DNA of 64,000 bases from Candidatus Campbellbacteria bacterium GW2011_OD1_34_28 (GTDB lineage Bacteria; Patescibacteriota; Minisyncoccia; Phycocordibacterales; UBA12079): NCBI GenBank assembly GCA_001029775.1, contig CP011215.1, positions 426,303 through 490,302 on the forward strand, read 5' to 3'. Shown in pieces: positions 2 through 60,310 of the stretch. Below the pieces are notes generated by a model, which saw nothing but the letters and a program-made list of their open reading frames with translations, had not been told where the DNA came from and searched no databases. Within the stretch, counting starts at the first letter, position 1. Every line of letters begins with the position of its first letter. Both the position numbers and the translations under genes were made by a program.

Positions 2-1456
2 CACGATATGTGGAAATCAGGAGCGAGAGGTTCTCTTGGAAACTTGACTCAGATGGTTGGAATGAAAGGTCTTATTCAAAATACTTTGGGAGAGACAATT
101 GAATTTCCAATTATTTCTTCTTCAAAAGAAGGATTAACTCCGATTGAATATTTCATTACGACTCACGGATCTAGAAAAGGTTTGGCCGACACCGCTTTGA
201 ATACCGCGAAAGCAGGATATCTTACGAGAAGATTGTTTGATGTGGCACAGGATATTGTTATCAACATGGAAGACTGTGGCACAAAAGATGCTATTTTAAT
301 CAAAAAAGCCAACTCGGTTGGATTTGATGTTCCTCTTGAAAAGAGTGTTAAGGGTAGATATTTGGCAAAGGAAGCAAAAGACAAAGACGGAAATGTTTTG
401 TTTAAGAAAGATCATTTTGTTACTAGAGACGATGCAAGAGCAATGGAAAATGCAGGAGTACAAGAAGTGATAGTACGCTCTCCGATGTCTTGTCAGTCTG
501 CAAGAGGTATTTGTCAAAAATGTTACGGATTGGATTTGGGAAGCAACGAATTGGTAAATCTTGGAGAAGCAGTGGGAACAATCGCTGCCCAAGCTATTGG
601 TGAACCAGGAACTCAGTTGACGATGAGAACCTTCCACGCCGGAGGTACAGCGTCTGTTGGTGGAGATATTACTCAGGGTCTTCCCCGTATTGAGGAAATT
701 TTTGAAAGAAGAATTCCAAAGATACCTGCTGTTATCAGCAAAGTAGAAGGTACTGTTATCGAGATTATTGACACTGGTACTGAAAGAGAAATTGTTATTT
801 TGCCAGATGAAGAAGACAAGACAAAAGTAAAGAAAGATAAAAACAATTTGCACCAAGTTCCTTTCAAGAGAATGATTATCGTCAAGGTTGGCGATCATGT
901 TAAGAAAGGAGATTTGCTAACAGACGGTTCTGCTGATATTGCCGAGATGTTTAAATATGCAGGCAAGACAAAAACTCAAGATTATATTATTGATGAGGCT
1001 ACAAAAATCTACGAATTGCAAGGAGCTTCTATTTCAAGAAAACATATTGAAGTTATTATTAAACAAATGTTTTCAAGAAGAAGAGTAAAGAGTTCGGGCG
1101 ATACAAGTTTGACCGAAGGTACTGTTGTCGAAGATTATATGTTGGAAAATGAAAACAAGAGAGTGTCAGCAAAAGGAAAAGAAGAAGCAAAAGCAATACC
1201 TTTGATCTTTGGAATTACAGAAGTAGCGTTGACCAGAGAGAGTTTCCTTTCAGCAGTATCTTTCCAAAATACAACAAAAATGCTTATCAATGCATCATTG
1301 AGAGGTGCAGAAGATAATTTGTTGGGATTGAAAGAAAATATTATTGTTGGAAACTTGATTCCAGCAGGAACAGGGTATGAAGGCAGTCCAAAGAAAGCAA
1401 TGATAGATGAACTACAAGCTGGATTGGCAGATAAAACTGAGAGTTGGGAGGAATAA
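2..1456 (+). CDS. rpoC: DNA-directed RNA polymerase subunit beta' (C-terminal part, 5' end outside window)
   Basis: ORF 8..1456 continues in frame to window start; translation shows characteristic beta' C-terminal motifs (GLIQNTLGETIEF, AQAIGEPGTQLTMRTFH, IPAGTGY). Confidence 0.93.
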   Translation, partial: HDMWKSGARGSLGNLTQMVGMKGLIQNTLGETIEFPIISSSKEGLTPIEYFITTHGSRKGLADTALNTAKAGYLTRRLFDVAQDIVINMEDCGTKDAILIKKANSVGFDVPLEKSVKGRYLAKEAKDKDGNVLFKKDHFVTRDDARAMENAGVQEVIVRSPMSCQSARGICQKCYGLDLGSNELVNLGEAVGTIAAQAIGEPGTQLTMRTFHAGGTASVGGDITQGLPRIEEIFERRIPKIPAVISKVEGTVIEIIDTGTEREIVILPDEEDKTKVKKDKNNLHQVPFKRMIIVKVGDHVKKGDLLTDGSADIAEMFKYAGKTKTQDYIIDEATKIYELQGASISRKHIEVIIKQMFSRRRVKSSGDTSLTEGTVVEDYMLENENKRVSAKGKEEAKAIPLIFGITEVALTRESFLSAVSFQNTTKMLINASLRGAEDNLLGLKENIIVGNLIPAGTGYEGSPKKAMIDELQAGLADKTESWEE

Positions 1457-10700: not shown

Positions 10701-13700
10701 GATAATGAAGATAGTTTTGTTGTTAGAGGAGATGGGGCTGTCGGAATCGGAACAACAACTCCTTCTGCAAAACTCGATATCTATCAAGGTAATTTGAATT
10801 TGGACAACACCACTTTCGCCAACCAATTTGGAGTGATTTCCAAGGGCGGAACAAGGTTTATCCATAATTTCAACTACGGAAACAACGGAACGGTGACGAC
10901 AGTAGGATACAATACTTTCATTGGAGAAAACGCGGGAAACTTGACGATGGGAAGTACGGCGACTTCGGCTAGTCATGCAAGCTACAATACAGGAGTGGGC
11001 TATCAGTCCTTGCAGGCAAACACCACAGGCTATTTCAACACCGCTATTGGTAATCAATCTTTATTATTAAATACCACAGGTTATCACAACACCGCTATTG
11101 GTAATCAATCTTTGCGTGGTAATACCACAGGTAGTTCTAATACCGCTAATGGTTATCAGTCTTTATATTCCAATACAACAGGAGGATTTAATGCTGCCAT
11201 TGGTTATCAATCTTTACGTTCCAACACAACAGGTGGCTATAATATCGCTTTTGGTTATAACGCTGGTCGCTATATTACAGACGGCGTAACAGAAAACACC
11301 ACAGGAGACTACAATATCTTTATCGGACAAGATACCAAAGCCCTTGCCGACGACGACCAAAACGAAATCGTCATCGGCTACAATGCCACAGGGGTAGGAA
11401 GCAACTCGGTTGTTTTGGGTGCCGATACAATCACAAAAACAATTTTGAAGGGGAATGTTGGCATCGGCACCACCTCACCTTTTGCAAAATTATCAGTAAC
11501 AGGAACCGGAACAGGAACTGGCTTGGCTTTTCAAGTTGCCGATTCTGCCAACTCACCAAAATTCACTGTTTTGGATAATGGAAATGTCGGCATTGGGACG
11601 ACGGCGCCAAGCCAGATTTTACATACTTTCAGAAATGATTCAAATACTACAAATAGTATTGAAATTGAGCAAGATGGCTCGGGAGATTCTTCATTAAGAT
11701 TTTTATTAACAGGAGTTACTGGATGGACAATGGGTGTAGATAATTCTGATTCAGATAAATTTAAGATAGGAAATGCACAGTCATTTTCTACAAGTTTTTT
11801 AAACATAGATGGCGCTGGCAACGTCGGTATAGGAACGGCAAATCCAGGGGCGGAACTTGAGATACAAGCAGACGCAAATACAGGCGGAGCTCCTCAATAT
11901 TCACAATTTTGGATTTCTGGAAAGACAGTTAATACAAAACGATTTTATATTGGTATGGATACGAGCACAAATAAAGGTATTCTTTCCGCAGAAACTGGTG
12001 CTGGGGTTTATGCACCTATTGTTATAAATCCATATGGTGGCAATGTTGGCATCGGCACCACAACACCAGGGGCGAAGTTAGATATTAATGGAAATATGAG
12101 AACCTCCATTGGTTCAGGTGGATTTTTGACATTACATGAGACTGATGCTACAAGACAAAATCAGTTGAGTCTGGGAGCTGACGCAAGCGGTGCGTATTTA
12201 GCTTCAACTTATGCGACTGGAGGAGTTGCAGATATTCGTTTTAGTTTAGCAGGTACAGAAAGGGTGCGCATTCAACAGGGTGGTAACGTCGGCATCGGCA
12301 CCACCTCACCTTTTGCAAAATTATCCGTCAAAGGAGCAGGAACAACCACAGGTGTAAACTTCCAAACAACCAATTCGGCTGACACTCCGTTGGTGACTGT
12401 TTTGGATAGTGGGAAGGTGGGTATTGGGACGACGAATCCTGGTACATTATTACAATTAAATATTGATGGTATAGCTAATACACCAAAGGAAGTATTAAGA
12501 GTGTTTAATGGGCTTGCTTATGGTGTTGGTAATGGTTATGGTGAGGCCCAAATAGGCATCGGACACGCTGTATCGGGTGGATATGTCGGTGGTGGAGCTA
12601 CTTCTGAAACTTCAAGTACTAATGGATATCTATCTTTAGGAAATAGGGTATCTAATGTAATGACAGAAGTAGTTAGAATTACTGATGGCAACGTCGGCAT
12701 CGGGACGACGAGTCCGGGAGCAAAGTTAGTTGTAGTGGGAAATGGTACCGCAAGCGTGGCTATAGGGGGTGGAGCATATACAGACTATTCATCTATATCC
12801 TTGAATGGGAGCCTTGCTTCTGGTCAATACAATCTTTTAAGTGGTTATGCTGACAAGACGCTCTATATTAATCGTCCAGCCGGTGCAGATATTTTATTTA
12901 GGGAAAATAATGGTACTGCACAGATGGTCATAAAACAGACAACCGGCAATATCGGCATCGGCACCACATCACCTTTTGCAAAACTATCCATCAAAGGAGC
13001 AGGAACAACCACAGGTGTAAACTTCCAAACAACCAATTCGGCTGATACTCCGCTGGTGACTGTTTTGGATAGTGGGAATGTCGGTATTGGGACGGTGAGT
13101 CCAGGGGCAATGTTGACTATTGTAGGCACTCCTGCTGGAGGTTCCACGAATGTTGGGTTAAATATATATGACAACACGGGGAATGGTGTCGGAATATGGA
13201 CATCAAACGCAGTTGGAAAAATTGGAACACCGAATGCTGTTGATGTTGCATTTATGGCAAACAATAGTGAGAAAATGAGGATATTACAATCGAACGGCAA
13301 CGTCGGCATCGGGACGACGAGTCCAGGAAGTTTGTTGCATTTATATCAAAATACAGTAGGAGTTGGGACTGGTAATGGATTAATGATTGAACAGGATGGA
13401 GCAGGCGACGCTTTAATGCAGTTTTTATTAACGGGGACAGCTAGATGGCAAATGGGCGTTGATAATAGCGATTCTAGAACATTCAAAATTGGAGTTGGTA
13501 GCGATTGGGCAACAAATATTGGCTTGGCAATTACAACTACAGGCAACGTCGGCATCGGCTCAACCGCTCCAAACTACAAACTAACCGTAAACGGAACAGT
13601 AGCTTTCCAAAGTCTTGCTAACAACGGCACTGGCTATTATGTCTGTGCCAACGCTGGAACAGGAGAACTAGCCACATCAACAACAGCCTGCGGAGCATCA

Positions 13701-14624
13701 TCAGAAAGATTTAAAACAAATATAAACGATCTAACATACGGTCTAGACACAGTCCTTCAACTACGCCCTGTATCTTTCAATTGGAAATCAGACTTTATCA
13801 ATTCTTCTTCAACTCAAATCGGATTCATCGCAGAAGAAGTAAACTCTCTTATACCAGAAGTAATCGGACACGATGACAAAGGTACTATCATGAACCTTGA
13901 TTATCCAAAGTTGACTTCGGTTTTGGTAAATGCAGTTAAGGAACTTAATCTAAAAATAGAAAGTATTGCAAGTACAACAAGCCAGTTGATAGCCGACAGC
14001 TCACAACCAACATCTGTTATTGATTCTGTTCTTTCTCATTTAGAAAGTTTGGGTGCTAAGTTTGTTGATGGAATCGCTTATTTAAAAACAGTTTTCGTTG
14101 AAAATCTAACTATTGGTAGTGCGGACAAGCCGACTGGTATGACTTTGTACGACAAAGCAACAGGGGAGCCTTATTGTTTGGAAATTGTTAATGGAGCGAT
14201 GGTAAATACTTCTGGAATTTGTGATACAGCTAATAGCCAGCAGCCAACAGCTGACAGCACGAACTACACCGCACCAGTTATAACAATCACAGGCAACAAC
14301 CCAGCCGTAGTAGAAATAAACAGCAACTATATTGATCTAGGCGCTACAGCAGTAGATAACCAAGGAAACTCTCTAATCGTAGATATAATAGACGCAGATA
14401 CAGTAGACACAACAACAGCCGGAGAATACACAGTTACTTACACAGCATTTGATGGAACACTAACTTCAACAAGTACGAGAACAGTACTTGTTGAAGATCC
14501 GACCCCGTTAGAGACCACGACTGTCTCTGACAGTCTGCCTCTAACGGGGCAAGTAGCTGACAGTCAACAGACAGCGACAACAACAGAGCCGACAACAACG
14601 GAGACGATAGTCGATAGTTTATAG
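4722..14624 (+). CDS. Giant (3300 aa) membrane-anchored repetitive fibre protein: N-terminal cytoplasmic segment + single TM, ~24 GNVGIGTTSPxxKLSV modules, Hep_Hag-like NTAxGxxSL repeats, S74-type intramolecular chaperone domain (SERFKTNI...), C-terminal Ig-like domain
   Basis: Single uninterrupted ORF; TM helix ALSTAVLAILLIGAGYF near residue 75; periodic motif counted in translation; SERFK autoproteolysis motif at nt ~13690-13960; extended -10 TGGTATAAT at ~4699-4707 upstream. Confidence 0.85.
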   Translation: MQSEIFLNGKRYLSTKKATKITELDEEHIKDLCREEKIDFTKVEGEYFVELEKLFEYKNKTNKPMILPIRALSTAVLAILLIGAGYFSGDILNQLNKTGEAVFSAVKNTKEITYKVGAEKRDLFKTQILDSNDNSPIKEIKDSKNVKTVDTYTQDFLDYLDGLKNRIVSVTADSLQLIADSTNEDEVEKTVDSRQSIVDSTDGVNILAGQVDHLTSFAKTGVNNLALVVYETASPVEQFAVGWYKFVNNLFSNEADSLQPTADSVDEADSGQLTTNSANEDDSSVFASDSEADRDEISENVPSVPATPKTTTIVTNPIREIIKETVVERVIQTSGVTLEDFQKLNNELRSEIYKLSSATNSQITNTYQVISATNNIDNLGSVTITDSNISSSNVSGTELSFTNGTIQNLTVTGTATSTYGGPISATSGTYSGNLTVTGNTTLNTLTVSGDTIFDTDTLYIDSINNRVGIGSTTPSDTLSVNGATYLAPISAPSITTDRLYNISNDLYWGGNLLAGSAVGNWTSNGTDVWRASGNVGIGTTSPSYKLSVDGFVDASGTTGGYKIDGNTILQASSTNYTTLVGQGAGSSLTSAIRTTAIGYGALASTTSGNNNTAVGYNALNLNSTGILNTAIGSLALSVNTTGDRNTATGALALYSNTTGSYNTGTGAYSLNLNTTGANNSAHGRSAMYSNTTGTYNTADGMQALFSNTTGNNNTASGYSSAYSNSTGGSNVTIGYGASYRNSTGSYNTAIGQDAGFGVAGNSYSNNSFFGYRSGYGITVGSNNLLLGYQAGDNVTTGSNNLVIGYDIDAPSATASNQLNIGNLIYGTNINGTGTTLSSGNIGIGTTSPFAKLSVKGAGTTTGINFQTTNSADTPLVTVLDSGNVGIGTSNPSTDLHVGNSNINNSVDSVILVSRLVDNSGVGSGVNGHAFSDSSTITRSGSIGYNSFDGRTIFSGSNDYNHYAVFQNGTTYSSSGTMGIMYGFVNVPTVTAGTVTSMYGVYTADPVGAGTVTNNYGLFVPQLSKGATKNYAIYTAGTTRSYFGGIINNSAGILIAPNDATTNPAKLFEIQTTSGTEASLRIRQLSQNYWDLKSPAGSTRFDISDVSGTYFSILNGGNTGLGITTPTGKLEIAQAGSDTIASRNHLIFGGSEGTDYFGMGLDATGDLMIDNLNGTDTNVMSLLSSGNVGIGTVSPGAKLDVATAINTGSLTLGVVPYTGTDRYVVLNSNGIALKNSITYGWGSGSTDAGGTKDTQFSRLSAGKISVDTGTVGNSLGTLIAGNVGIGTTSPAAALEVQGNVIFNDRLTMNGDSVGLSANNSNYNTIKSLFRPTSNGLNLTGALVDANFDNNSANLTNAYGLRITNAISGTYTTTNAYGLYVEQPTGATNNYGAYINGNVGIGTTTPFRKLSVEGSVWISGDLTANSITATSSISAPYFTATDTTATSTFAGGLTVGTNKLVVDRSTGNVGIGTTASDRALHISTNSTNYQLRLERTGTTAGASTLYANSSFALGITAGSGTGTGVFTLGQTGGLSLGTYYGTNPGAGSLILPGNVGIGTTTPFRKLSVEGGAWISGDLTVSNITATSSVYLSNTTYADQSGIIYKGANSFIHNFNYGNNGTVTTLGQNTFVGELAGNFTMGSTATETYHASRNTAIGYQSLLANTTGYYNTANGYQTLRLNTTGGYNTANGLQSLYSNTTGNYNTTNGANSLYLNTTGSSNVADGHSAGTYITDGVTANTTGDYNIFIGRDTKALADNDQNEIVIGYNATGVGSNSVVLGNDSITKTILKGNVGIGTTSPFAKLSVTGAGTGTGLAFQVANSANSPKFTVLDSGNVGIGTMGPEGLLHIHSTSAGDVVAHASYNDFVIEGGSTVGMNILSADVGLSGLGFGTPSDNLGSYLQWDFTNNLMSVGTARTGGNLRLVTGNNVEQIRIQSNGNVGIGTTTPSANLDIYSNVDSNSRLNIDLGAASSNIGINLISSSISSGSYWIKTTGNDNEDSFVVRGDGAVGIGTTTPSAKLDIYQGNLNLDNTTFANQFGVISKGGTRFIHNFNYGNNGTVTTVGYNTFIGENAGNLTMGSTATSASHASYNTGVGYQSLQANTTGYFNTAIGNQSLLLNTTGYHNTAIGNQSLRGNTTGSSNTANGYQSLYSNTTGGFNAAIGYQSLRSNTTGGYNIAFGYNAGRYITDGVTENTTGDYNIFIGQDTKALADDDQNEIVIGYNATGVGSNSVVLGADTITKTILKGNVGIGTTSPFAKLSVTGTGTGTGLAFQVADSANSPKFTVLDNGNVGIGTTAPSQILHTFRNDSNTTNSIEIEQDGSGDSSLRFLLTGVTGWTMGVDNSDSDKFKIGNAQSFSTSFLNIDGAGNVGIGTANPGAELEIQADANTGGAPQYSQFWISGKTVNTKRFYIGMDTSTNKGILSAETGAGVYAPIVINPYGGNVGIGTTTPGAKLDINGNMRTSIGSGGFLTLHETDATRQNQLSLGADASGAYLASTYATGGVADIRFSLAGTERVRIQQGGNVGIGTTSPFAKLSVKGAGTTTGVNFQTTNSADTPLVTVLDSGKVGIGTTNPGTLLQLNIDGIANTPKEVLRVFNGLAYGVGNGYGEAQIGIGHAVSGGYVGGGATSETSSTNGYLSLGNRVSNVMTEVVRITDGNVGIGTTSPGAKLVVVGNGTASVAIGGGAYTDYSSISLNGSLASGQYNLLSGYADKTLYINRPAGADILFRENNGTAQMVIKQTTGNIGIGTTSPFAKLSIKGAGTTTGVNFQTTNSADTPLVTVLDSGNVGIGTVSPGAMLTIVGTPAGGSTNVGLNIYDNTGNGVGIWTSNAVGKIGTPNAVDVAFMANNSEKMRILQSNGNVGIGTTSPGSLLHLYQNTVGVGTGNGLMIEQDGAGDALMQFLLTGTARWQMGVDNSDSRTFKIGVGSDWATNIGLAITTTGNVGIGSTAPNYKLTVNGTVAFQSLANNGTGYYVCANAGTGELATSTTACGASSERFKTNINDLTYGLDTVLQLRPVSFNWKSDFINSSSTQIGFIAEEVNSLIPEVIGHDDKGTIMNLDYPKLTSVLVNAVKELNLKIESIASTTSQLIADSSQPTSVIDSVLSHLESLGAKFVDGIAYLKTVFVENLTIGSADKPTGMTLYDKATGEPYCLEIVNGAMVNTSGICDTANSQQPTADSTNYTAPVITITGNNPAVVEINSNYIDLGATAVDNQGNSLIVDIIDADTVDTTTAGEYTVTYTAFDGTLTSTSTRTVLVEDPTPLETTTVSDSLPLTGQVADSQQTATTTEPTTTETIVDSL
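7241..7384 (+). repeat. ~145 bp intragenic DNA repeat (copy 1 of 3; copies at 12291..12434 and 12951..13094) encoding GIGTTSPFAKLSVKGAGTTTG(I/V)NFQTTNSADTPLVTVLDSG
   Basis: Near-identical nucleotide stretches read directly in sequence. Confidence 0.8.
9500..10215 (+). repeat. ~700 bp intragenic duplication (second copy ~10820..11595) encoding FIHNFNYGNNGTVTT...Hep_Hag repeats...GNVGIGTTSPFAKLSVTG
   Basis: Long collinear nucleotide similarity between the two segments inside the giant gene. Confidence 0.75.
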
Positions 14625-14819: not shown

Positions 14820-15030
14820 TTATTTTTTGGCCTTTTCGTTCATCATGGCAATGAATCTGGTCAGATCGAAACGGCTACAGTCGAGCTTTTCGCCGTTCTC
14901 GGAATTCATGATGGTCAATCCGCCATCAGGATTTTCTGCGATGCCAAGACAACAGTCTTTGCTACCGCAGGCGAACTCAAACTTCTTTCCGCCGATTACT
15001 TCTTTTCGTGTTTTCATGTTTTCGGGCATA
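14820..15030 (-). CDS. Small (70 aa) cysteine-containing hypothetical protein in a GC-elevated cassette with strong SD (GGAGGTGTGTT-ATG) and TTGACA-N17-TATACT promoter
   Basis: ATG at 15030..15028 preceded by GGAGGTG at optimal spacing; promoter gggaTTGACAat...TTATACT at ~15063-15095 on minus strand; terminator downstream; the ORF track's TTG-extended version 14820..15071 is probably too long. Confidence 0.6.
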
Positions 15031-16571: not shown

Positions 16572-16732
16572 AATAATTTTGACAATTTAATAATTTTTGA
16601 CAACTTTGATAAATAATTGTTTATTAATGTATCCTACCATCGGTAAAAATTCTTGTCAAGACTTTTAAAACAGACATAAAATATTTTCATAAACCCCTTG
16701 ACACATCTTTTTCTTTGTACTAGTATGGGTTT

Positions 16733-19024
16733 ATGACAAAGAATATAACAAAAAGCTTAATAATATTTCTGGCAATTTTTTCCGCGTTTTCTTTTGGTTT
16801 GATTCCAGTAGATATTCAAGCTGCTACTACTCAAATAAATTTTAATGATGAGATTATGTTTGCTCCGAACTGTTTTTGCGGAGCTGATGTAACAGCATAC
16901 AATCTTTACCCCTGTGAAGATCGTAATTGGTGTAACGGTGATACCTCAATAAAGACAGCCAATGTTTCTAATGGAAAATACAAAGTAAAAGTAAATATAG
17001 CTAAATTAACTGATGGACAAAGATTTGAATCGGTGATTTTTACATTTAATGGAGTAAATTATACTATTCCCGATCTTGGAGGAAATGCAGACTCGACTGG
17101 TACGGGGGTATATGAAGTTGGAACATTTAATTTGTCAGGACCAGTTAGTTTTAAAGGAACTCACAAATATGCCAATACTTTTACAGGTCTTTGGTACTCA
17201 GATCCTTATTCAAAAGTAGGTTCTGGTCACGCAATGGAAAGTGTTTCTATTGCCTCTGTTGTTCTTGAAGAAATTGTTACCCCACCTACTTGTACAATGA
17301 GTGCGGTTCCTTCAACAATAACTGCTGGAAATACATCAAATTTGAGATGGACTTCTACAAACGCAACTAGCGCTGTTATCAATCAAGGAATTGGAAATGT
17401 AGCCGTTAATGGAAATAGAAATGTTTCTCCATTCCAAACAACGACTTACACAGGAACATTTACGGGCCCTGGTGGAACAGTAAATTGTCAAACAACCGTG
17501 ACTGTTACAATACCCCAAATGCCTACTTGTACAATGACAGTTAATCCTGCAAATATTACAACTGGACAAAGTGCAACTTTGAGTTGGACTTCTGTAAACG
17601 CAACTAGCGCTGTTATCAATCAAGGAATTGGAAATGTAGCCGTTAATGGAAGCAGATCTGTTTCACCAACTCAAACAACAACTTATACGGGAACATTTAC
17701 TGGTGCTGGTGGAGTAGTAACTTGTCAAAAAACTTTGACTGTTAACAATGTTCCACCACCTCAATTGCCGACTTGTGCAATGAGTGCTGTTCCTCAAACA
17801 ATCTCTGTTGGAGACACATCAAATTTGAGATGGACATCTACAGGCGCAACCAGTGCTGTTATAAACCAAGGAATTGGCACAGTAGCAGTTGATGGAAATA
17901 GAAATGTTTCACCTACTCAAACCACAACATATACAGGAACCTTTACAGGTTCTGGAGGAAGCGTAGTTTGCCAGACAACAATTATTGTTACATCTACACA
18001 CCCTGCGCCAACTTGTACAATGACAGTTACACCAGACAGTATTGTTAACGGAGGAAATGCTACTCTAGCTTGGAATTCTACAAATGCTACATCTGCTTCT
18101 ATAAATCAAGGTATCGGAACTGTGGCTGTTGATGGAAGTCGTGTTGTTTCTCCAAATCAGACCACAACATATACAGGAACATTTACAGGTTCTGGAGGTG
18201 TTGTTACTTGTAGTGCTATGTTGACTGTTTCTGGAACAGGAGGTCCTTCTATAAATATAACAAAAAATGACAATGACAATGGTGATGATACTCAGGCCGT
18301 TGTGTCTGGGGGGACAGCAACCTTTACAGTCGTTGTGACAAATAATGGAACAAGAGATCTTATTGACGTTGTTGTAACAGATGCTTTGGCACCAAATTGT
18401 AACAGAACAGAAAGTCAAACAGCAGGTCTTTATCCGGGGTTAGTATTTGATCCAGGAGAAAGTTTTACTTATACATGTACTGACACAGATATTACATCAG
18501 CTTATACAAATACAATTAGAGTTGATGCTGATGAAATTGGAACATTTTCTATTGTTAATGACACAGATACCAGCAATGTTACCATAACTGGTTCAGGAAA
18601 TACTCCTACATGTTCTATGAGTTTTACACCAAGTAGCATAAATGTTGGAGACAGATCAACTCTTGCTTGGAATTCAACAAATGTTACTACGGCTGTTATT
18701 GATAACGGTGTAGGTAACGTCAATCCAAATGGTTCAACAGATATATTTAGAACATCGTCTGCAACATATACAGGAACATTTACAGGCCCAGGTGGAGTAG
18801 TGACTTGTCAGGCAAACATAACTGTTGGTGGTGGGGGAGGTGGAGGAACAAATACTCCGCGTATCACGCTATCTTCTGGTTCTGGAGTAACTGAACCCGG
18901 ATTCATTTATTTGAGCCAGATTCCTTATACAGGTATTCCTCAGTTCTTGATGACAATGATGGGATTTGTATTTAGATTCGCGTTCTTTGGAGGATTACTG
19001 TTTGCCTTATACAAAATTAAATAA
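16733..19024 (+). CDS. Secreted surface protein with six tandem Ig-like repeats (PTCTM...TYTGTFTG.GG.V.CQ) and C-terminal cell-wall sorting signal (IPYTG + hydrophobic segment + KIK)
   Basis: Signal peptide MTKNITKSLIIFLAIFSAFSF; repeats evident in translation; C-terminus LSQIPYTGIPQFLMTMMGFVFRFAFFGGLLFALYKIK has LPXTG-like architecture; TTGACA-N17-TAGTAT promoter at ~16699-16727. Confidence 0.8.
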   Translation: MTKNITKSLIIFLAIFSAFSFGLIPVDIQAATTQINFNDEIMFAPNCFCGADVTAYNLYPCEDRNWCNGDTSIKTANVSNGKYKVKVNIAKLTDGQRFESVIFTFNGVNYTIPDLGGNADSTGTGVYEVGTFNLSGPVSFKGTHKYANTFTGLWYSDPYSKVGSGHAMESVSIASVVLEEIVTPPTCTMSAVPSTITAGNTSNLRWTSTNATSAVINQGIGNVAVNGNRNVSPFQTTTYTGTFTGPGGTVNCQTTVTVTIPQMPTCTMTVNPANITTGQSATLSWTSVNATSAVINQGIGNVAVNGSRSVSPTQTTTYTGTFTGAGGVVTCQKTLTVNNVPPPQLPTCAMSAVPQTISVGDTSNLRWTSTGATSAVINQGIGTVAVDGNRNVSPTQTTTYTGTFTGSGGSVVCQTTIIVTSTHPAPTCTMTVTPDSIVNGGNATLAWNSTNATSASINQGIGTVAVDGSRVVSPNQTTTYTGTFTGSGGVVTCSAMLTVSGTGGPSINITKNDNDNGDDTQAVVSGGTATFTVVVTNNGTRDLIDVVVTDALAPNCNRTESQTAGLYPGLVFDPGESFTYTCTDTDITSAYTNTIRVDADEIGTFSIVNDTDTSNVTITGSGNTPTCSMSFTPSSINVGDRSTLAWNSTNVTTAVIDNGVGNVNPNGSTDIFRTSSATYTGTFTGPGGVVTCQANITVGGGGGGGTNTPRITLSSGSGVTEPGFIYLSQIPYTGIPQFLMTMMGFVFRFAFFGGLLFALYKIK
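17285..18240 (+). repeat. Four-five tandem ~240 bp coding repeats (Ig-like domains) inside surface protein gene; a further copy at ~18598..18840
   Basis: Repeated PTCTM(S/T)xxP...RWTSTNATSAVINQGIG...TTTYTGTFTG units. Confidence 0.75.
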
Positions 19025-19185: not shown

Positions 19186-19225
19186 GCTTTAATTTTGAAG
19201 ATTAAAAAAAGATATTTTTGAAATA

Positions 19226-19258
19226 AGAAAAGCCCCAACCGAAGTTGGGGCTTTTTCG
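19226..19258. terminator. Bidirectional intrinsic terminator GCCCCAAC CGAA GTTGGGGC + T5
   Basis: 8-bp GC-rich stem, T-run; 3' of minus-strand gene 19281..19625. Confidence 0.75.
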
Positions 19259-19280
19259 GATTGACCGCGGAGTCGTGCGG

Positions 19281-19625
19281 TTATCCGAGGACCGTGTAGG
19301 CGTCGATGTCGACGTTATTGGTCGAGAGAAAGTCCATGTAGTTCTGCGACAGAACGCCGGCTGCGAGGACGATGCTATCGGCCGAGCTCAGGCCGGCCGC
19401 ACACTTGTCCGGGTTGGCCGAGTTGAACGGGACCTGCTTGATCTTTCCATTGACGTTGATCAGGGCGATACCGGGCGATTTGACGTCGAGCTTGTCGCTG
19501 TGGAACACGATGGCTTTGGCCTTCGGGTTGTCCATGATACTGACCGTCTCCAGGGTTGCCGTGATTCCGAGCGCCACGATTGCCGTCATCACATTCAGGG
19601 GTTTGATCGTTTTCTTGCTGTCCAT
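19281..19625 (-). CDS. Small secreted hypothetical protein (114 aa, signal peptide) in ~58% GC cassette with SD GGAGG and gggaTTGACAat promoter
   Basis: ATG at 19625 preceded by ACGGAGGAAACGCC; hydrophobic N-terminus KPLNVMTAIVALGITATL; promoter TTGACA-N16-TAATAT at ~19690-19725 (minus); strong GC shift relative to flanks. Confidence 0.65.
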   Translation of the reverse strand: MDSKKTIKPLNVMTAIVALGITATLETVSIMDNPKAKAIVFHSDKLDVKSPGIALINVNGKIKQVPFNSANPDKCAAGLSSADSIVLAAGVLSQNYMDFLSTNNVDIDAYTVLG

Positions 19626-19735
19626 TGGCGTTTCCTCCGTAAAAAAAAGGGCTGTTTGCACTGAGAATCAAGATGACTCAAAGCACGTTGACTGACAAAC
19701 ATATTAACAGACTAAAAAATATTGTCAATCCCAAC

Positions 19736-37026: not shown

Positions 37027-37237
37027 TTAATCAGGGATTTTGATAAACTCAGGGGTATTTTTTACCCCAAGCTCTGCCAGTTTGGCGAGAGCCTGCGGTA
37101 TTGAGATATTTTCCTTTTGAGCCAGCCTCAGCATTACTTGACTGGTGTGTTTGGGGAAGTGAATTATTTCTCCACAAATGGGAATGCTCACCTTTCGCAC
37201 ATCGTCTAATGGCAAATCTATCTTGTCTTCCGCCATC
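37027..37237 (-). CDS. Small hypothetical protein (70 aa) with SD GGAGG, TTGACA-N17-TAAAGT promoter and bidirectional terminator CCGCGCC...GGCGCGG
   Basis: ATG at 37237 preceded by TTGGAGGAAAATACG; terminator at ~36993..37018; GC-elevated relative to flanks. Confidence 0.55.
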
Positions 37238-49706: not shown

Positions 49707-49937
49707 TTATATGATCAAAGCTATAAAAGCTGAAGCTACAAAAAGAATAGCAAGAGTAACTGTGATATAAAAGAAAATCTTTTCTGCGCCTCTTCTTGTG
49801 TGTCTTGCAGAAAAATTGTCTCCACCACCAAAAGCACCTCCCAAGTCATTACCAGTTTGTTGAATCAAAATGGCTGCTACAAGGAGAACAGCTAGTGTTA
49901 TCTGTATAAAAGGAAGTATATTAGTTAAATTTTCCAT
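49707..49937 (-). CDS. secG: Preprotein translocase subunit SecG
   Basis: Two TM helices separated by glycine-rich GNDLGGAFGGGDNF loop; leaderless-type TATAAT 8 nt before ATG. Confidence 0.8.
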   Translation of the reverse strand: MENLTNILPFIQITLAVLLVAAILIQQTGNDLGGAFGGGDNFSARHTRRGAEKIFFYITVTLAILFVASAFIALII

Positions 49938-50183
49938 CCCCAGAATTATAGCAAGAAGACTTAAAAAAGCAATAGAAGTCCTAAAAGTTTATAAAGTTTG
50001 TAAAGTTCATAAAGTCCGTAAAGTTATGTATGTAATCAGAGTCGAGCCTCGAGAAATAGGGAATTAAACTTTTAAAATAAAGGATTTTTTAGCATTGACA
50101 AAGATGTTGTATTATACTATAATAATAAAAGAATAAGGGTTGGCTATGGGAGGCTGGCTCAAAAAAGAAAGAGGGTAAAAAAA

Positions 50184-50300
50184 ATGATGTACACAACGAA
50201 GATGTTGGAGATTATCTCCACCTTGACTGAAGTAGATGAGGCTGCTGCCGTAGCGATGTTGCTCGGAGACCTCGAAGAGTCTGAGATCAGTTTCGACTGA
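50184..50300 (+). CDS. Micro-ORF (38 codons, acidic peptide MMYTTKMLEIISTLTEVDEAAAVAMLLGDLEESEISFD) with promoter TTGACA-N17-TATAAT and GAGGG SD, followed by terminator
   Basis: Promoter at ~50096..50125; GC-elevated codons; terminator ATCCCCCGAG CTTCGG CTCTGGGGGAT T4ATTT at 50313..50346; speculative. Confidence 0.3.
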   Translation: MMYTTKMLEIISTLTEVDEAAAVAMLLGDLEESEISFD

Positions 50301-50378
50301 TCTCGCAATTTAATCCCCCGAGCTTCGGCTCTGGGGGATTTTTATTTACCCGAGGTCGGACCTCGGGTAAATAAAAAG

Positions 50379-50420
50379 AGGGATTTTGCTAAAGCAAAAT
50401 CCCTCTTTATTTATTTCGTA
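50379..50420 (-). terminator. Intrinsic terminator of topA (GAGGGATTTTGC...GCAAAATCCCTC + T-run on minus strand); part of a cluster of four hairpins 50283..50420
   Basis: 12-bp stem with A-run upstream on plus strand (T-run on minus). Confidence 0.7.
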
Positions 50421-50469
50421 TTACTTATTCCTCACCCCTTACTCCTTAACCCTTAACCCTTAACCCTTA

Positions 50470-52689
50470 CTACTTGCTACTCAACTTATCCGGCCTATGG
50501 TTCGGGCAATTTTTATCACTACATCTGTCAGGGATTGTTTTGGTACCTTTCATCATCAGCTTGCCACACATTGGGCAAAGATTTCCTGTTGGCTCTGCTT
50601 TGATAGCCAACTTACAATCGGGATAATTTGAACAAGAATAAAATTCTCCAAATCTCCCTCTTCTTTTTACCATATATCCGTTCTTACATTCGGTACACTT
50701 AACACCAGTAGAATTTTTTCTTTCCAATTCTTCATCTTTTTTTACAAACTTACATTTTGGATAATTTGAACAAGCAATAAATCTTCCAAATTTTCCGTCT
50801 CTCTCTACCAAAGGATTTCCACAATCAGGACATGGCTCGCCAGTTTCTTTCGGACCTTCCAATTCTTTTCCTTCTATTGTTCGAGCACCATTACAATCTG
50901 GAAATTTTGCACAGCTCATAAATTTGCCATTTTTTGCAAGTTTAATAACCATTGCGCCCCCACACTCTGGACATTTAAATTCTTTTGGTGCATCACCCAG
51001 ATTGGTTATTTTTTCTATTCCTTCTTTTGCTTTAATATCTTTTGTAAAAGGTGTGTAAAATTCTGTTAGAGTTTTTACATAATCTCTTTCTCCATTTGCT
51101 ATTTCGTCCAATTTATCTTCCATCTCGGCAGTAAACAAATCGCTGATGTAGTTTTCAAAATGATTTTCCAAAAAAGTACTCACTACTTCGCCTGTGTCTG
51201 TTGGTCGCAAAGCAGTTCCTTCTTTGTCGGCATAAGCGCGGTCTTTTAATGTTTTTATAATTGTCGCATAGGTGCTGGGACGACCAATTCCTCTTTTCTC
51301 CAATTCTTTAATCAGACCAGCTTCGGAGTATCTTTGAGGTGGTTGAGTCTGCTTGTCTTCTACATTCATTTTTAATAAATCTAAATCCTCGCCAATTTTT
51401 ATTGCAGGCAATTCTGTGTCTTCTCCTCGAGCAGAAGGATCGGCCAAAAGCCATCCATCAAAAAGAACTCGAGATCCGTTTATATTAAATTCTGGTATTC
51501 TTGCCTCGCCGGCAGGCAGGTTTTCTTTTCCCTCAACATCAACGACGATTTTTGATCTTAATATTTTTGCATCGGACATTTGAGAGGCAATTGTTCTTTG
51601 CCAAATCAATCTATACAATTTTTTCTGTTCATCGGTTGATCCAACATTTTCTTTTGTTATGCTTGTTGGACGAATTGCTTCGTGAGCTTCTTGTGCATTT
51701 TTTGACTTTGTTTTGTATACTCTCGCCTCAACATATTTCTTGCCGTATTTTTTTTCTATCTCGCTTAAAATTTGTTTTTGAGCAGTTTGGCTAATTGTCG
51801 TGCTGTCAGTTCTCATATAAGTAATGTATCCTGCTTCGTACAATTTTTGGGCGACACCCATTGTCTTGCTTGGAGCAAATCCCATTCTAGAGCTGGCTGT
51901 TTGTTGTAGTGTAGATGTAGTAAAAGGAGCACGAGGAGATCTCTTTGCCTCGGTTTCTTTTAGATCGGCTACTTTCCAAGTGCCGTTATTTCCGACTTCA
52001 AGAATTTTTTCTACTTGATTTTTGTCGCGGGGTTCTTCTGAACAATTCAAGGTAAAAGTAGTTGCAGATTTTGTTTTTACATCTGCGGTGATTACGAAGT
52101 AGTCTTCTGGAATGAAAGCTTTTATTTCTCTTTCTTTTTCAACCAAAATACGCAAAGCAGGGGACTGAACCCTTCCTGCAGAAAGACCATAACGAACTTT
52201 TTTCCAAATCAAACCGCTAAGATCGTATCCAAAAAGTCTATCTAAAACACGACGAGCTTCTTGAGCTCGTCTTAAATTATCATCTATATCACGCGGGTGT
52301 TTCAGCGCTTCTTTGATTGCACTTTCGGTAATTTCGTTAAAGGTCACTCTCTTGATACTTGATACTTGTAACTTATTACTCTTCAAATCCTCTTTTAGGA
52401 TTTGAAGCAGGTGCCACGCAATAGCTTCTCCTTCACGGTCAGGATCGGGGGCGAGAATAATCTCGTCTGCATCCTTTGCAAGAGTCTTTAATTCTTTTAT
52501 CACCTTTTCTTTTCCCTTGATTGTTTCATAGTTGGGAATGAACCCTCCTTCTATATCTATGGCTGTTTTATTGCTTTTAGGCAAATCACGAATATGTCCC
52601 ACAGATGATGTGACAACGTAATCTTTGCCAAGATATTTATTAATAGTCTTTGCTTTCGCAGGAGACTCTACTATCAAAAGTTTTGACAT
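50470..52689 (-). CDS. topA: DNA topoisomerase I with C-terminal zinc-ribbon repeats
   Basis: TOPRIM MSKLLIVESPAKAKTI, catalytic region, multiple CPxCG zinc fingers. Confidence 0.95.
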   Translation of the reverse strand: MSKLLIVESPAKAKTINKYLGKDYVVTSSVGHIRDLPKSNKTAIDIEGGFIPNYETIKGKEKVIKELKTLAKDADEIILAPDPDREGEAIAWHLLQILKEDLKSNKLQVSSIKRVTFNEITESAIKEALKHPRDIDDNLRRAQEARRVLDRLFGYDLSGLIWKKVRYGLSAGRVQSPALRILVEKEREIKAFIPEDYFVITADVKTKSATTFTLNCSEEPRDKNQVEKILEVGNNGTWKVADLKETEAKRSPRAPFTTSTLQQTASSRMGFAPSKTMGVAQKLYEAGYITYMRTDSTTISQTAQKQILSEIEKKYGKKYVEARVYKTKSKNAQEAHEAIRPTSITKENVGSTDEQKKLYRLIWQRTIASQMSDAKILRSKIVVDVEGKENLPAGEARIPEFNINGSRVLFDGWLLADPSARGEDTELPAIKIGEDLDLLKMNVEDKQTQPPQRYSEAGLIKELEKRGIGRPSTYATIIKTLKDRAYADKEGTALRPTDTGEVVSTFLENHFENYISDLFTAEMEDKLDEIANGERDYVKTLTEFYTPFTKDIKAKEGIEKITNLGDAPKEFKCPECGGAMVIKLAKNGKFMSCAKFPDCNGARTIEGKELEGPKETGEPCPDCGNPLVERDGKFGRFIACSNYPKCKFVKKDEELERKNSTGVKCTECKNGYMVKRRGRFGEFYSCSNYPDCKLAIKAEPTGNLCPMCGKLMMKGTKTIPDRCSDKNCPNHRPDKLSSK

Positions 52690-52831
52690 AGTTAGACAAA
52701 GTATAACAGATGTAGAAAAAAAGCAAGCGCAGGTATTGACAAATATTTATTTTATTATAGTATATTGGCAGGATTCAACGGCGTTTGTGCTGTTGAGAAA
52801 TTAAAATTTTTAGGTTTTAGGAGGTGTTCGT

Positions 52832-53992
52832 ATGGCAAAGTCACTGGTAGGAATTCAGACATTGGAGTCTCTCGCTGGCTGGAAAATGATCGCCGAGAGG
52901 ACTAACGAGACCGAGGAGACTGTCCAGACCGGTCAGACCAAACCCGCAGAGTTCCGGATTTATCGGAACGATGACTTGGGGGTCGAGATTCATGTCCGGC
53001 GTTCGCTGGTCAAGGAAGGACTCGATTTCCTGCCTGGGATGGTAAAGGATGTCGAGACAGGAAAAGACCTGTGGAGTTTTTTTCAGGAGCAGTCCAAAGG
53101 ACTCGGACACCTGCTCGCCATTAACGGCGAGGTGGTCATCGGCCTGGAGGAGTGGGGCGATCTGAAGAAGGTCATCCCCGTCGCCGATCTGCGCAAGCAG
53201 AAGACCGTCGTCGTTGATGGCGTGTCCAAAATTGTCGGTGGTCGTGGCGTTCTCGCTACGGTCGATCTCAAACACTCGGTTGCCGAGGCGCTTTCTACCG
53301 ATCAGGGCAGGAGCATCAAGGCCAACATCACCGACGCCGAGCGCGCGGTGATGAGAAAACTTTCTGATGCCCGCAAGGCCAGTGAGGAGCGTGAGCGATT
53401 GGCACGGGAAACCGCGCGTCGCGAGCGGATCGCCAAGATCAAGAGCCGGCAACAGATTTCCGGCATGGTCGTGGAGAACGGCAGGGGTTCGCGTTGGGCG
53501 ATTCCTGTCACAGAAGACGAATGGATGTCTTTTGGGACCGACGACGGCATGGTTGCCATCGTTGCCGGTTTCGGTGAAGACGGCAAGCCCATCGTTCCCG
53601 AAGACGGAGTGGTGGAGGCATTTTTCATTCAGTATCGCAAGGGCGGTGGTGGACGGCCGGAGAAGAAGGCACAGGTGAAAATCCGTCTTCGTGGCTACGA
53701 ACAGGCCGAGCCCGTGAAGGAAGCATCCGTCTCCGCACCGACGCTCGTCAAACTGGAAACCGTCTTTATCGAGGTTTCCAAGGATCAGGCGAAATCCCTC
53801 GGCATCGATTCCGGATTTCAGGAAGTCAGTCTTACGGATGCAGAGGGGATTTCCACTCTGCGGAAGGCAGGTCTCAACAGCGGTGCGCTCGTCGCGATCT
53901 CCGCCACCGACGGATCCGATCGGATTCAGGTGGAGAAGTTCGTTGACGGCCAGACGCAGACCTTGGGCCTCTTTAATCCGATCACGATGTGA
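52832..53992 (+). CDS. Hypothetical protein (386 aa) in ~58% GC cassette with TTGACA promoter, AGGAGGTG SD and hairpin terminator; two globular halves joined by basic coiled-coil (ERERLARETARRERIAKIKSRQQ)
   Basis: SD 52817..52824; promoter gtaTTGACAaat...TAGTAT at ~52762..52795; terminator CCCGTCGTTGC...GCAACGACGGG T6 at 54013..54062. Confidence 0.7.
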   Translation: MAKSLVGIQTLESLAGWKMIAERTNETEETVQTGQTKPAEFRIYRNDDLGVEIHVRRSLVKEGLDFLPGMVKDVETGKDLWSFFQEQSKGLGHLLAINGEVVIGLEEWGDLKKVIPVADLRKQKTVVVDGVSKIVGGRGVLATVDLKHSVAEALSTDQGRSIKANITDAERAVMRKLSDARKASEERERLARETARRERIAKIKSRQQISGMVVENGRGSRWAIPVTEDEWMSFGTDDGMVAIVAGFGEDGKPIVPEDGVVEAFFIQYRKGGGGRPEKKAQVKIRLRGYEQAEPVKEASVSAPTLVKLETVFIEVSKDQAKSLGIDSGFQEVSLTDAEGISTLRKAGLNSGALVAISATDGSDRIQVEKFVDGQTQTLGLFNPITM

Positions 53993-54146
53993 TCTGGACT
54001 AACGGCCCAAACCCGTCGTTGCATGTTGGATCCCTCCAATATTCGCAACGACGGGTTTTTTAATTGTATTGACATCTTTGTTATTTTAAATAGTATTTAG
54101 GTAGGATTTTATAGATTCTTTACTTTAATTTAAGAGGAGGTGTTAT

Positions 54147-54362
54147 ATGCCAGCAACAGAAAAAGATTGGAGAAATTGGCAAGATATCAATGGTAATTCG
54201 GAAGGACTAAGTCCAACCGAATTAATGAACATTCGTTATCGTCACGGCAGAGCCGAGGCTGTAAGGGCAATCACCTGTCCACCGGGGAGAGACCCTCAGA
54301 CATGGGAAGATCAGATTCAAAATTTTTTGGTGTCCAAGGAATTCGGACATCGCGTTCATTAA
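54147..54362 (+). CDS. Small hypothetical protein (71 aa) with GAGGAGGTG SD, own TTGACA-N16-TAGTAT promoter and terminator GGCGGAGTGTC ACAA GACACTCCGCC T7
   Basis: SD at 54133..54141; promoter at ~54071..54099; terminator 54376..54408. Confidence 0.6.
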   Translation: MPATEKDWRNWQDINGNSEGLSPTELMNIRYRHGRAEAVRAITCPPGRDPQTWEDQIQNFLVSKEFGHRVH

Positions 54363-54494
54363 GGGGGGATAGGCGGAGTGTCACAAGACACTCCGCCTAT
54401 TTTTTTGTGTATATTTCAATAATTCAGTATGTTATTATTTAAACTATATTTTAGTTTGTAGTGGGTAGTTTTTAGTGAGTAGTAATTATTTTTT

Positions 54495-58975: not shown

Positions 58976-59132
58976 TTTTATAAATAGTAACATTTTTTAT
59001 TATTTTAGGATATTTTAGAAACTTGATAATTTCAATAGGGCAGTATTCTAAGGGCTTGACAAGTAGGTCTATTTTTTGATATGGTTTTTATAGGAAATTC
59101 TTTTCATTTTCAATAACAAAGGAGGTAACGAG

Positions 59133-60197
59133 ATGAAAAAGAGAATTATTCTCTTAGTTTTGTTGGGTCTTTTTTCGGTTTCTACAGCAATGGCGAGTAC
59201 ATTGGTGGTGGAGCAGATTACTCAGCCGTTGAGTGGTCTCGCACCGGAAGGAGCGACGAGGATCCCTTTCTCAAAAGTGCGTTTTCGTGCACAGGACGGC
59301 AAGGTCGCCCTTTATGGCGTCTATGTTGAGAAAACGGGAATGGCCGGACAGGTCTTCTCTGGAGTTGCATTACTTCGTAATGGGGTTCAAATGGGAACGA
59401 CCGTCACCAGTTTTGGTGCGGACAATCGGGCAATGTTAATGGCAGATTCACCGTTTGAAATCGCCGACGGTTCCTCTTACGACTTAACTGTCGTGGGGAA
59501 TATGCGCGACGATTTGTCGGGAGATGATGGTAAAACCATCGGTATTGCCATCGTCGGTGTCTGGACGACAGCGACTGTGCAGGGTTTTGTTCTAATCGAA
59601 GGAACTCACCGGACGGCGAGTTCCGACTATGTCATTGGCGCTGTCAACGCAACAGCTGGTGAGGACAATCCGTCAGCTGGATCAACTGCTTACCCCGGAG
59701 AGACAAAAATTTTCTCTTCGGTAAGTTTGATCGCTTCGTCCGTTGAGGACGAGGTTCTCAAATCAGTGATGGTGAAGGCGTCGGGGAACGCAACCAAAAG
59801 TGATTACAACAGTGTGGTGCTTTTGGTCGGTGGGACAAACTATCCGATGACTGTTTTGCCGGACGGCAGGTACTACGCAGGCGGGATCAATAAAACCATC
59901 ACGAACACCGCTAAAACGAAAGTATCGATTTCTGCAAATGTGGTCGGAGGCGTTGGTAAAACAATCGCCTTTGATATCGTAGAATCAACTGATGTTGAAT
60001 TGGCCGGTGCAATTACCGGATTCGGTACAACGCCGATCGGATCAGGACCTTCGTTCGGTTCGTTCCCTTGGTTCAAGGGAACGACGACGAGCATCGTTCA
60101 GGCACCAACACCGCCTCCTCCTTTACCACCACCGACTGCGAAACAACGCAAGGCGGCAGCAATGACGGCCATTCGGTCGCTGTTGCAGGACAAGTAG
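59133..60197 (+). CDS. Secreted hypothetical protein (354 aa; signal peptide, two related beta-rich domains, PTPPPPLPPPT C-terminal linker) in ~55% GC cassette with AAGGAGGT SD and 20-bp hairpin terminator
   Basis: SD 59119..59126; signal peptide MKKRIILLVLLGLFSVSTAMAS; terminator AAGAGCAGATTTTGTGCG..CGCACAAAATCTGCTCTT at 60201..60246. Confidence 0.65.
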   Translation: MKKRIILLVLLGLFSVSTAMASTLVVEQITQPLSGLAPEGATRIPFSKVRFRAQDGKVALYGVYVEKTGMAGQVFSGVALLRNGVQMGTTVTSFGADNRAMLMADSPFEIADGSSYDLTVVGNMRDDLSGDDGKTIGIAIVGVWTTATVQGFVLIEGTHRTASSDYVIGAVNATAGEDNPSAGSTAYPGETKIFSSVSLIASSVEDEVLKSVMVKASGNATKSDYNSVVLLVGGTNYPMTVLPDGRYYAGGINKTITNTAKTKVSISANVVGGVGKTIAFDIVESTDVELAGAITGFGTTPIGSGPSFGSFPWFKGTTTSIVQAPTPPPPLPPPTAKQRKAAAMTAIRSLLQDK

Positions 60198-60310
60198 CAA
60201 AGAGCAGATTTTGTGCGTACGCGCACAAAATCTGCTCTTTTTTGTTTGTTAAAAATACTTTAAACAAAAAAAAGTAATGTGGATAACTTGTTTTGTAATG
60301 TGTCTTCTAG

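Follow-up and report, generated by a model that had tools for sequence, protein, structure and literature searches.

Several described kinds of locus share features with the one reported here. In replacement flexible islands, such as O-antigen, surface-layer (S-layer) cassette, flagellin and pilin loci, a fixed site between core genes holds content that varies among relatives. Phage 'morons' are single genes with their own sigma-70 promoter and terminator and a deviant composition, placed between unrelated genes. S-layer genes such as Lactobacillus slpA combine a strong promoter, a 5' stem-loop leader, a strong Shine-Dalgarno (SD) sequence, monocistronic transcription and a strong terminator with an organization in allelic cassettes. 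Finally, the 'group C' class of GeneMarkS-2 is said to comprise genomes in which leaderless and SD-led genes are mixed. Here we analyze a GC-rich block (positions 52760-54410) that encodes a 386-aa and a 71-aa protein between the divergent genes topA and smc. It lies in a 64-kb stretch of the genome of Candidatus Campbellbacteria bacterium GW2011_OD1_34_28 (contig CP011215.1, positions 426,303 to 490,302; hereafter, the window), for which the closest public record is GCA_001774425.1. Campbellbacteria belong to the Parcubacteria within the candidate phyla radiation (CPR) or Patescibacteria, which account for a substantial part of bacterial diversity and most of whose lineage-specific proteins are uncharacterized.

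Like a replacement flexible island, the block occupies a fixed slot, filled by alleles that are 28-46% identical and bounded by sharp homology breakpoints. Unlike such islands, it is very small (one to four monocistronic orphan cassettes), its product has neither a signal peptide nor a known surface link, and replacement at the level of strains is not firm. It differs from morons in being chromosomal, set among housekeeping genes, devoid of phage homologues and part of a family conserved across a bacterial class. It differs from slpA in that none of 121 family members has a secretion signal and that there is no sequence or fold similarity. With group C it shares SD-less core genes and a minority of leadered genes with strong SDs, but the SD-led class is here also shifted in GC content and encodes orphan proteins only. 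On balance, we lean narrowly towards a reading in which the block consists of two independent high-output monocistronic cassettes in a variable topA/smc landing pad, the larger one representing an undescribed Parcubacteria family whose alleles are exchanged within a conserved frame.

The composition of the larger gene is exceptional. The window has a GC content of 0.36 overall, which steps from about 0.35 to 0.56-0.60 over positions 52950-54000. The coding sequence (CDS) of the 386-aa protein reaches 0.572, compared with a mean of 0.358 and a maximum of 0.493 for 604 equal-sized windows elsewhere (z = 5.4). Its GC content at third codon positions (GC3) is 0.677, against 0.260 ± 0.035 in 36 core genes (z = 11.8), and by codon position the values are 0.63/0.41/0.68, against about 0.44/0.30/0.27 in the neighbors. 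Arg is encoded by CGN in place of AGA and Leu by CTC or CTG in place of TTG, and four-fold boxes have C instead of A at the third position. The ribosomal-protein genes and dnaK of the window show the reverse preferences, and ordinary translational selection is therefore unlikely for this gene. The enrichment ends at the borders of the CDS; the promoter and leader are AT-rich and host-like, and the 71-aa gene is shifted only mildly (GC 0.45, GC3 0.38). A preliminary description of this DNA had put the whole 1.65 kb at 55-58% GC. The step itself and the significant departure from host genes are real, but that figure is too high, since the block as a whole averages 0.525.

Each gene also carries its own set of expression signals (Table 1). 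The two promoters, first described with spacers of 16 or 17 nt, both have 16; they form a 43-nt direct repeat of 72% identity and are paralogous to each other. The promoter of the 386-aa gene is invariant in the window and in three sister loci (L001, L003 and L004) and is kept in the more distant loci L006 and L016. The stretch between the -35 box and the ATG is nearly identical in the window and the sister loci, although synonymous divergence (dS) in the same genes is about 0.7; in L004, the DNA upstream of the -35 box can no longer be aligned. A stem-loop close to the start of the mRNA is paired in 40 of 40 cells over five distinct sequences, compared with only 32-60% in slid controls, and shows compensatory double changes at three of its eight pairs. 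It probably stabilizes the transcript. The GGAGG-type SD upstream of the family gene is retained in the other loci examined, and the promoter of the 71-aa gene is conserved in the three sister loci. The terminators have folding energies of -33.4 kcal/mol (z = -6.8; 386-aa gene, conserved in sister loci) and -30.0 kcal/mol (z = -8.2; 71-aa gene), so that sequence and fold bear out the strong SDs and terminators first noted for both genes. Relative to dinucleotide shuffles, the mean z of mRNA folding is -1.5 for the 386-aa gene and -2.0 for orf354, another orphan gene of the window; topA and smc give -0.8 and 0.0, respectively.

Taken as a unit, each cassette pairs a near-consensus sigma-70 promoter with a strong SD and a strong intrinsic terminator, to which the large gene adds its covarying leader stem-loop. 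The leader, the SD and the structured GC-rich CDS may together yield a long-lived, efficiently initiated mRNA and hence a very abundant protein. An SD would be needed because a leadered GC-rich mRNA could presumably not use the AU-rich, probably leaderless initiation of core genes. In agreement with what had been noticed for the flanking genes, an SD is absent from all core genes listed in the window. A -10-like box lies 4-10 nt upstream of the start codon in about 11 of 36 core genes, for example as TTGACA-17-TAGTAT-6-ATG at 16698; leaderless initiation would explain the missing SDs, and these boxes hint, no more strongly than that, that this organism expresses its core genes mainly from leaderless mRNAs. 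Examples of -10-like hexamers before SD-less core genes are found at 16698-16735, 49937-49960 (-), 52689-52715 (-) and 58993-59015 (-).

Table 1. Coordinates of the two cassettes, of the predicted domains of the 386-aa protein and of further orphan cassettes in the window
Feature	Position	Strand	Basis or remark
Promoter of 386-aa gene, TTGACA-N16-TAGTAT	52736..52763	+	Promoter scan
8-bp stem-loop near 5' end of 386-aa mRNA	52775..52796	+	In minimum-free-energy fold
Shine-Dalgarno AGGAGGTG of 386-aa gene	52819..52826	+	5 nt upstream of ATG, read from sequence
386-aa protein gene, undescribed Parcubacteria family	52832..53992	+	Open reading frame (ORF) list
Terminator of 386-aa gene, 22-bp interrupted stem and T-run	54009..54064	+	Inverted repeat I3; fold
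Promoter of 71-aa gene, TTGACA-N16-TAGTAT	54069..54096	+	Promoter scan
Shine-Dalgarno GAGGAGGTG of 71-aa gene	54134..54142	+	Read from sequence; AGGAGGT core conserved in sister loci
71-aa protein gene	54147..54362	+	ORF list
Terminator of 71-aa gene, 20-bp stem and T-run	54363..54406	+	Terminator scan
N-terminal beta domain of 386-aa protein (predicted)	residues 17-135		AlphaFold
Helical hairpin of 386-aa protein (predicted)	residues 140-158 and Arg/Glu-rich 168-204		AlphaFold
Five-strand beta domain of 386-aa protein (predicted)	residues 209-286		AlphaFold
Disordered linker of 386-aa protein (predicted)	residues 290-307		AlphaFold
C-terminal alpha/beta domain of 386-aa protein (predicted)	residues 310-381		AlphaFold
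69-aa orphan, TTGACA promoter, GGAGG(TG) SD	14820-15029	-	GC3 0.56, no Pfam match
69-aa orphan, TTGACA promoter, GGAGG(TG) SD	37027-37236	-	GC3 0.47, no Pfam match
114-aa orphan, hydrophobic N-terminal segment	19281-19625 (unit 19225-19735)	-	GC 0.57, GC3 0.83
orf354, 354-aa protein	59133-60197 (unit 59056-60240)	+	Cassette of same style

Structured RNAs classically stand out as GC-rich islands in AT-rich genomes, which raises the question of whether the block might be a structured non-coding RNA with the long ORF as a mere by-product. Long spurious ORFs on the opposite strand and local folding stronger than in shuffled sequences (the mean z of -1.5 given above) could be read in the same way, but the opposite-strand ORFs are themselves by-products of GC richness. 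Moreover, substitutions fall mainly on third codon positions, indels preserve the reading frame and the ratio of nonsynonymous to synonymous divergence (dN/dS) is 0.08-0.14 for both genes. Protein homologues down to about 25% identity and a confident protein fold, both described below, point the same way. No Rfam family reaches its gathering threshold in the whole window, and at E ≤ 1 there is one weak match, to IS128 RNA (E = 0.15; 21 bits, gathering score 80), which spans the first terminator and the start of the 71-aa gene. As a main explanation, the RNA reading is already refuted.

The 386-aa protein is soluble and belongs to a sizable family that is restricted, as far as names go, to CPR bacteria. 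When 1.84 billion cluster representatives were searched exhaustively with a profile, 132 clusters were retrieved at E ≤ 0.001, mostly of 330-360 aa and reaching down to about 25% identity. By comparison, a word-indexed search gave five close relatives only, the same search with a 60-sequence profile gave six proteins, and the sole return of a profile scan of genome contigs was an already known Paceibacterota contig. Where the source names the organism, members come only from Campbellbacteria, Wolfebacteria and 'Pacebacteria/Paceibacterota'. Searches with the 386-aa protein gave no match in Pfam, NCBIfam, PHROGs or PADLOC, and those with the 71-aa protein none in the first three; PADLOC likewise returned nothing for the two window proteins together with five homologues. 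When 121 aligned family members were scanned singly, there was neither a curated-family match nor any recurrent weak Pfam family at E ≤ 1. No homologue of the family was found in phage, plasmid or IMG/VR collections, and the family does not turn up in the literature on CPR expression, codon usage or abundant unknown proteins. The initial impression that neither protein is recognizable thus survives remote-homology, family-library and structure searches.

With the 121-sequence alignment, AlphaFold produced a model of the 386-aa protein with a mean predicted local distance difference test score (pLDDT) of 86.8 and a predicted template modeling score (pTM) of 0.68; with six close homologues only, the pLDDT was 41 and the model unusable. 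According to the model, the protein consists of three beta-rich domains and a basic helical hairpin. The picture of two globular halves joined by an Arg/Glu-rich coiled-coil, drawn at first, is therefore approximate: the Arg/Glu-rich helix is there, as part of the hairpin, but the modeled order is beta domain, hairpin, beta domain, linker and alpha/beta domain. The model has no significant match among PDB or viral structures. Invariant or nearly invariant residues of the family are W81, K147, E170, R206, G217, G223, P225, E230, W231 and F264. There is no conserved catalytic-looking motif, and no His, Cys, Ser or Asp stands out. Family proteins, of about 340 aa, are mildly basic (median pI 8.5), with a basic hairpin (+4) and an acidic C-domain, and they contain cysteines (median 2). 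A pattern in the C-domain (GLNSGxxVA) had suggested an AbrB/SpoVT/MazE-like fold, which was rejected at an hhalign probability of 0.2% over 14 columns; a PDB profile search found no AbrB or MazE chain at E ≤ 10. Positive selection or a hypervariable domain was rejected in view of a dN/dS of 0.08-0.29 in every domain and a between-allele divergence that is uniform along the protein. No silent extra copies of the gene were found within the window.

We next consider where the unusual composition comes from. The block had been described as a foreign-looking insert, and the explicit form of this idea is a recently acquired island of about 1.65 kb from a GC-rich donor, which has kept the donor's composition and signals and encodes an accessory system. 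The GC3 contrast (0.68 vs 0.26 in core genes), the Arg and Leu codon choice, the existence of empty junctions in relatives and a CDS history incongruent with the core would all fit such an origin, as would the lower GC3 of the window-type allele in L016 (0.50), which amelioration predicts. However, both genes stand at the same place between topA and smc in L001 (97% aa identity), L003 and L004 (86-88%), where the dS of the cassette (0.69-0.86) is no lower than that of the flanks (0.45-0.53) and the GC3 of the family gene is still 0.64-0.68 in four lineages at a dS of about 0.7. Within this close clade, descent of the two genes is vertical. The same locus, promoter and 5' untranslated region (5'-UTR) recur even in lineages with a core dS above 1, and the confinement of the enrichment to the CDS, with its host-like promoter and leader, also speaks against an imported segment. 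Every named homologue is from CPR bacteria, which leaves the GC-rich donor without a candidate. As to mobility, there are no integrase or other mobility genes, repeats do not bound the block (apart from the promoter pair, it has no long direct repeat), no tRNA gene occurs in the 64-kb window, and the phage, plasmid and IMG/VR collections gave no match. We therefore regard a recent island from a GC-rich donor as unlikely; of the initial impression, the variable junction, the non-vertical history of the CDS and the deviant composition stand.

The same conclusion follows from a wider sample of ten tabulated loci, which cover the window's clade, L006 and six other Parcubacteria lineages, with contexts such as xerC, secE-nusG-rplK and gyrA. 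In all ten, the family gene is monocistronic and followed by a hairpin, and its GC3 exceeds that of its neighbors by 0.11-0.41, even in a host whose neighboring genes have a GC3 of 0.68. Three further loci (family GC3 0.42-0.50, locus GC 0.33-0.40) bring the raised GC3 to 13 hosts of 13. A GGAGG-type SD precedes the annotated start in nine of the ten, and L006 has one at its corrected start; every family gene whose true start is established thus has an SD. Eight of the ten show the TTGACA pattern, which was also seen by eye in L008 and at the corrected start of L006. In all hosts examined, high GC content, above all GC3, characterizes the family, and excess mRNA secondary structure goes with it. 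What maintains this composition is probably selection for the structure or stability of the mRNA, GC-biased gene conversion at a hot spot of recombination, or a combination of the two.

The junction itself was compared across related loci, 80 of which came from a metagenome scan with the SMC N-terminus. Judged by gene content, it is a landing pad of variable occupancy. Relatives in which topA and smc adjoin without the block do exist: the gap is empty and 145 nt long in L055, and empty and 200 nt long in L085 and L088. In L018, the gap contains a 153-aa relative of the small gene and nothing else, L016 has the large gene and two other orphans without the small gene, and L050 and L078 have unrelated SD-led orphans. 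The small gap orphans of these last two loci, which also come from Campbellbacteria, at 6582-6857 (-) in L050 and at 6084-6524 (-) and 6652-6849 (-) in L078, have SD-like motifs upstream, and one of them gives a weak match to DUF1937. In L095 and L096, family alleles of 34% and 40% identity lie upstream of smc.

The family CDS, in turn, appears to behave as an exchangeable allele within a conserved frame of promoter and 5'-UTR. Its divergence does not scale with that of the core genes. Identity between L006 and the window is 82% for topA and 79% for smc, but 28% for the family protein; for L016, the corresponding values are 81%, 68% and 77%, and the dS of the family gene (0.95) is below that of the flanks (1.4-1.8). 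Yet the window, L006 and L016 retain the same promoter and leader despite family proteins that are 28% and 77% identical. A sharp breakpoint is seen between L016 (6544-9247) and L095 (2558-5252), which share 2.7 kb at 98.5% nucleotide identity, comprising smc and 450 nt upstream of it. Further upstream, the two cannot be aligned; there, the family alleles are 32% identical, and the surrounding orphan genes differ, with an M23 peptidase in one of the two loci. Divergent alleles at one locus are clear at the genus level (the window vs L006 and L016), and at the strain level they are represented by one pair, L016/L095, whose background identity is uncertain. Among alleles of one type, purifying selection acts on all domains.

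How does the 71-aa gene relate to its larger neighbor? Its protein has a conserved motif, AV..I.CPP...W...F.VSK.F, and its dN/dS is about 0.1. The small-gene family was seen only in Campbellbacteria-type loci. The block had been proposed as a two-gene accessory system, and a functional pair (defence, toxin-antitoxin or effector-chaperone) would accord with the adjacency of the two genes in the window, L001, L003 and L004, with the paralogous promoters and with L006, in which two small-gene paralogues, one on each side, flank a very different large-gene allele. Against this, each gene has its own promoter and terminator, and the two do not strictly co-occur. The large gene is found without a nearby small-gene match in L016 and in L096, where smc follows directly, and L018 has the small gene alone. 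Beside the family genes of other lineages, a tblastn scan found no small gene in L007-L010 (L012-L014 and L095 were not scanned). Adjacency would in any case be explained by the synteny of the whole region, and PADLOC, as mentioned, gave no match. A functional pair is thus quite improbable. Since the transcription units are separate and each gene occurs without the other, there is no obligate pair, and the 71-aa gene is most simply seen as a neighboring cassette of the same style.

With respect to function, our best guess is that the 386-aa protein is an abundant, non-enzymatic cytoplasmic protein. It may be a binding or structural component inside the cell that acts in a process of conflict or recognition, involving phage, host or kin; such a role would explain the swapping of whole alleles. 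The main functional rival is an exported surface or S-layer-like subunit, with allele replacement driven by phage or host recognition. Its expression signals (strong promoter, 5' hairpin, strong SD, monocistronic unit and strong terminator) are those of an S-layer gene, whole alleles are replaced at a fixed locus, and envelope genes are often nearby (M23 peptidase, YkuD, peptidoglycan-binding proteins and secreted orphans). On the other hand, a signal peptide or hydrophobic N-terminus was found in none of the 121 family members, cysteines are present, and allele divergence is uniform over the domains instead of being focused on an exposed part. Furthermore, orf354, which lies 5 kb away and does encode a signal peptide, is the better surface or S-layer candidate. 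We consider an exported role for the 386-aa protein doubtful.

Several observations weigh against the two-cassette reading that we prefer, or against parts of it. The abundance of the 386-aa protein is presumed from its expression signals alone, and codon usage opposite to that of ribosomal-protein genes would not be expected where expression is high, except if the target of selection is the mRNA and not decoding. The function assigned is a guess, with no fold or motif match behind it, and the family gene has no conserved operon partner in the loci compared. The GC3 of the window-type allele is only 0.50 in L016, and some GC3 drift therefore occurs. Polarized synonymous changes in the 386-aa gene (54 GC>AT vs 35 AT>GC; the flanks show the reverse excess) are compatible with equilibrium or with slow GC decay, but they match the pattern expected from parsimony bias, so that no firm conclusion on decay follows. 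With regard to allele exchange, identity between L016 and L095 falls to 85% just downstream of smc; we therefore do not claim that the two are conspecific, and smc itself may be the exchanged piece. Finally, neither the window nor the 96 collected loci contain a 16S rRNA 3' end in which the anti-SD could be checked, and the anti-SD motif was not detected in about half of Parcubacteria (PMC9297842). Many independent genes and lineages conserve a correctly spaced GGAGG, which speaks for its use.

A related observation concerns L008 (9154-11145), in which none of rplA, rplJ and rplL comes after secE-nusG-rplK. Such an arrangement agrees with the uL1-lacking subgroup of Parcubacteria, which has been tied to loss of the anti-SD (PMC9297842). 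The L008 family gene, located just upstream of these genes, carries a GAGGAGGT SD nonetheless.

The block had also been singled out as the largest and cleanest unit of its kind in the window, but it is not a one-off. At least six units in the window, the two genes of the block included, share one layout: a TTGACA promoter lies 74-103 nt upstream, the SD is strong and the product is an orphan. Pfam matches none of them, and GC3 is clearly elevated in five. The 114-aa orphan unit is the most GC-shifted of the window; its TTGACA promoter lies about 103 nt upstream, its SD is GGAGG, and there is a terminator hairpin near 19230-19258. The orf354 unit has a TTGACA-N18-TATGGT promoter with a TG, a AAGGAGGT SD and a 19-bp terminator. 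The orf354 protein is rich in Thr, Ser, Gly, Ala and Val and ends in a Pro-rich linker followed by a basic tail. The gene (GC 0.51, GC3 0.51) is conserved in L003 (83% aa identity, dN/dS 0.13), and the protein has no Pfam or NCBIfam match.

Some other features of the window are worth recording. Between secG and the 3' end of topA, positions 50095-50408 (+) hold a perfect TTGACA-17-TATAAT promoter, about 250 nt of GC-richer DNA and a bidirectional terminator (50375-50408). This may be a small RNA or the gene of a 38-aa peptide (50184-50300); no Rfam family matches it at threshold. Directly after the topA stop codon, at 50440-50469, there is a tandem repeat CCCTTAA/TTAACCC of about three copies. 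A giant ORF of 3300 aa (4722-14624, +), with a somewhat raised GC content of 0.41, fills the region between 5 and 15 kb.

A broader and more speculative proposal would extend the two-cassette reading to the whole group. According to it, Parcubacteria use two gene 'dialects', with an AT-rich, SD-less and probably leaderless core on one side and GC-rich, SD-led, hairpin-stabilized orphan cassettes on the other, the latter dominating the proteome of ribosome-poor cells. The 386-aa family would be the main member of the second class, a hyper-abundant new fold serving as a nucleoid, envelope-associated or anti-phage scaffold, with alleles swapped under phage or host pressure and GC content maintained by mRNA selection or biased gene conversion and not by foreign origin. 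We consider this proposal rather improbable.

At a more practical level, the 386-aa family offers a defined target, since it is widespread in Parcubacteria, has a confident model without a solved or viral structural match and bears the strongest expression signals in the region. The locus also calls for caution in annotation, because a large anomaly in GC content and codon usage may be a stable family-wide trait, linked to mRNA expression or recombination, and not a trace of recent transfer. For the prediction of start sites in CPR genomes, it matters that such cassettes are SD-led and core genes are not. If allele exchange holds true at the population level, the topA-smc junction would represent a hypervariable locus of the replacement type, small in size and located in ultra-small, episymbiotic bacteria, as well as a handle on their interactions with phages or hosts.

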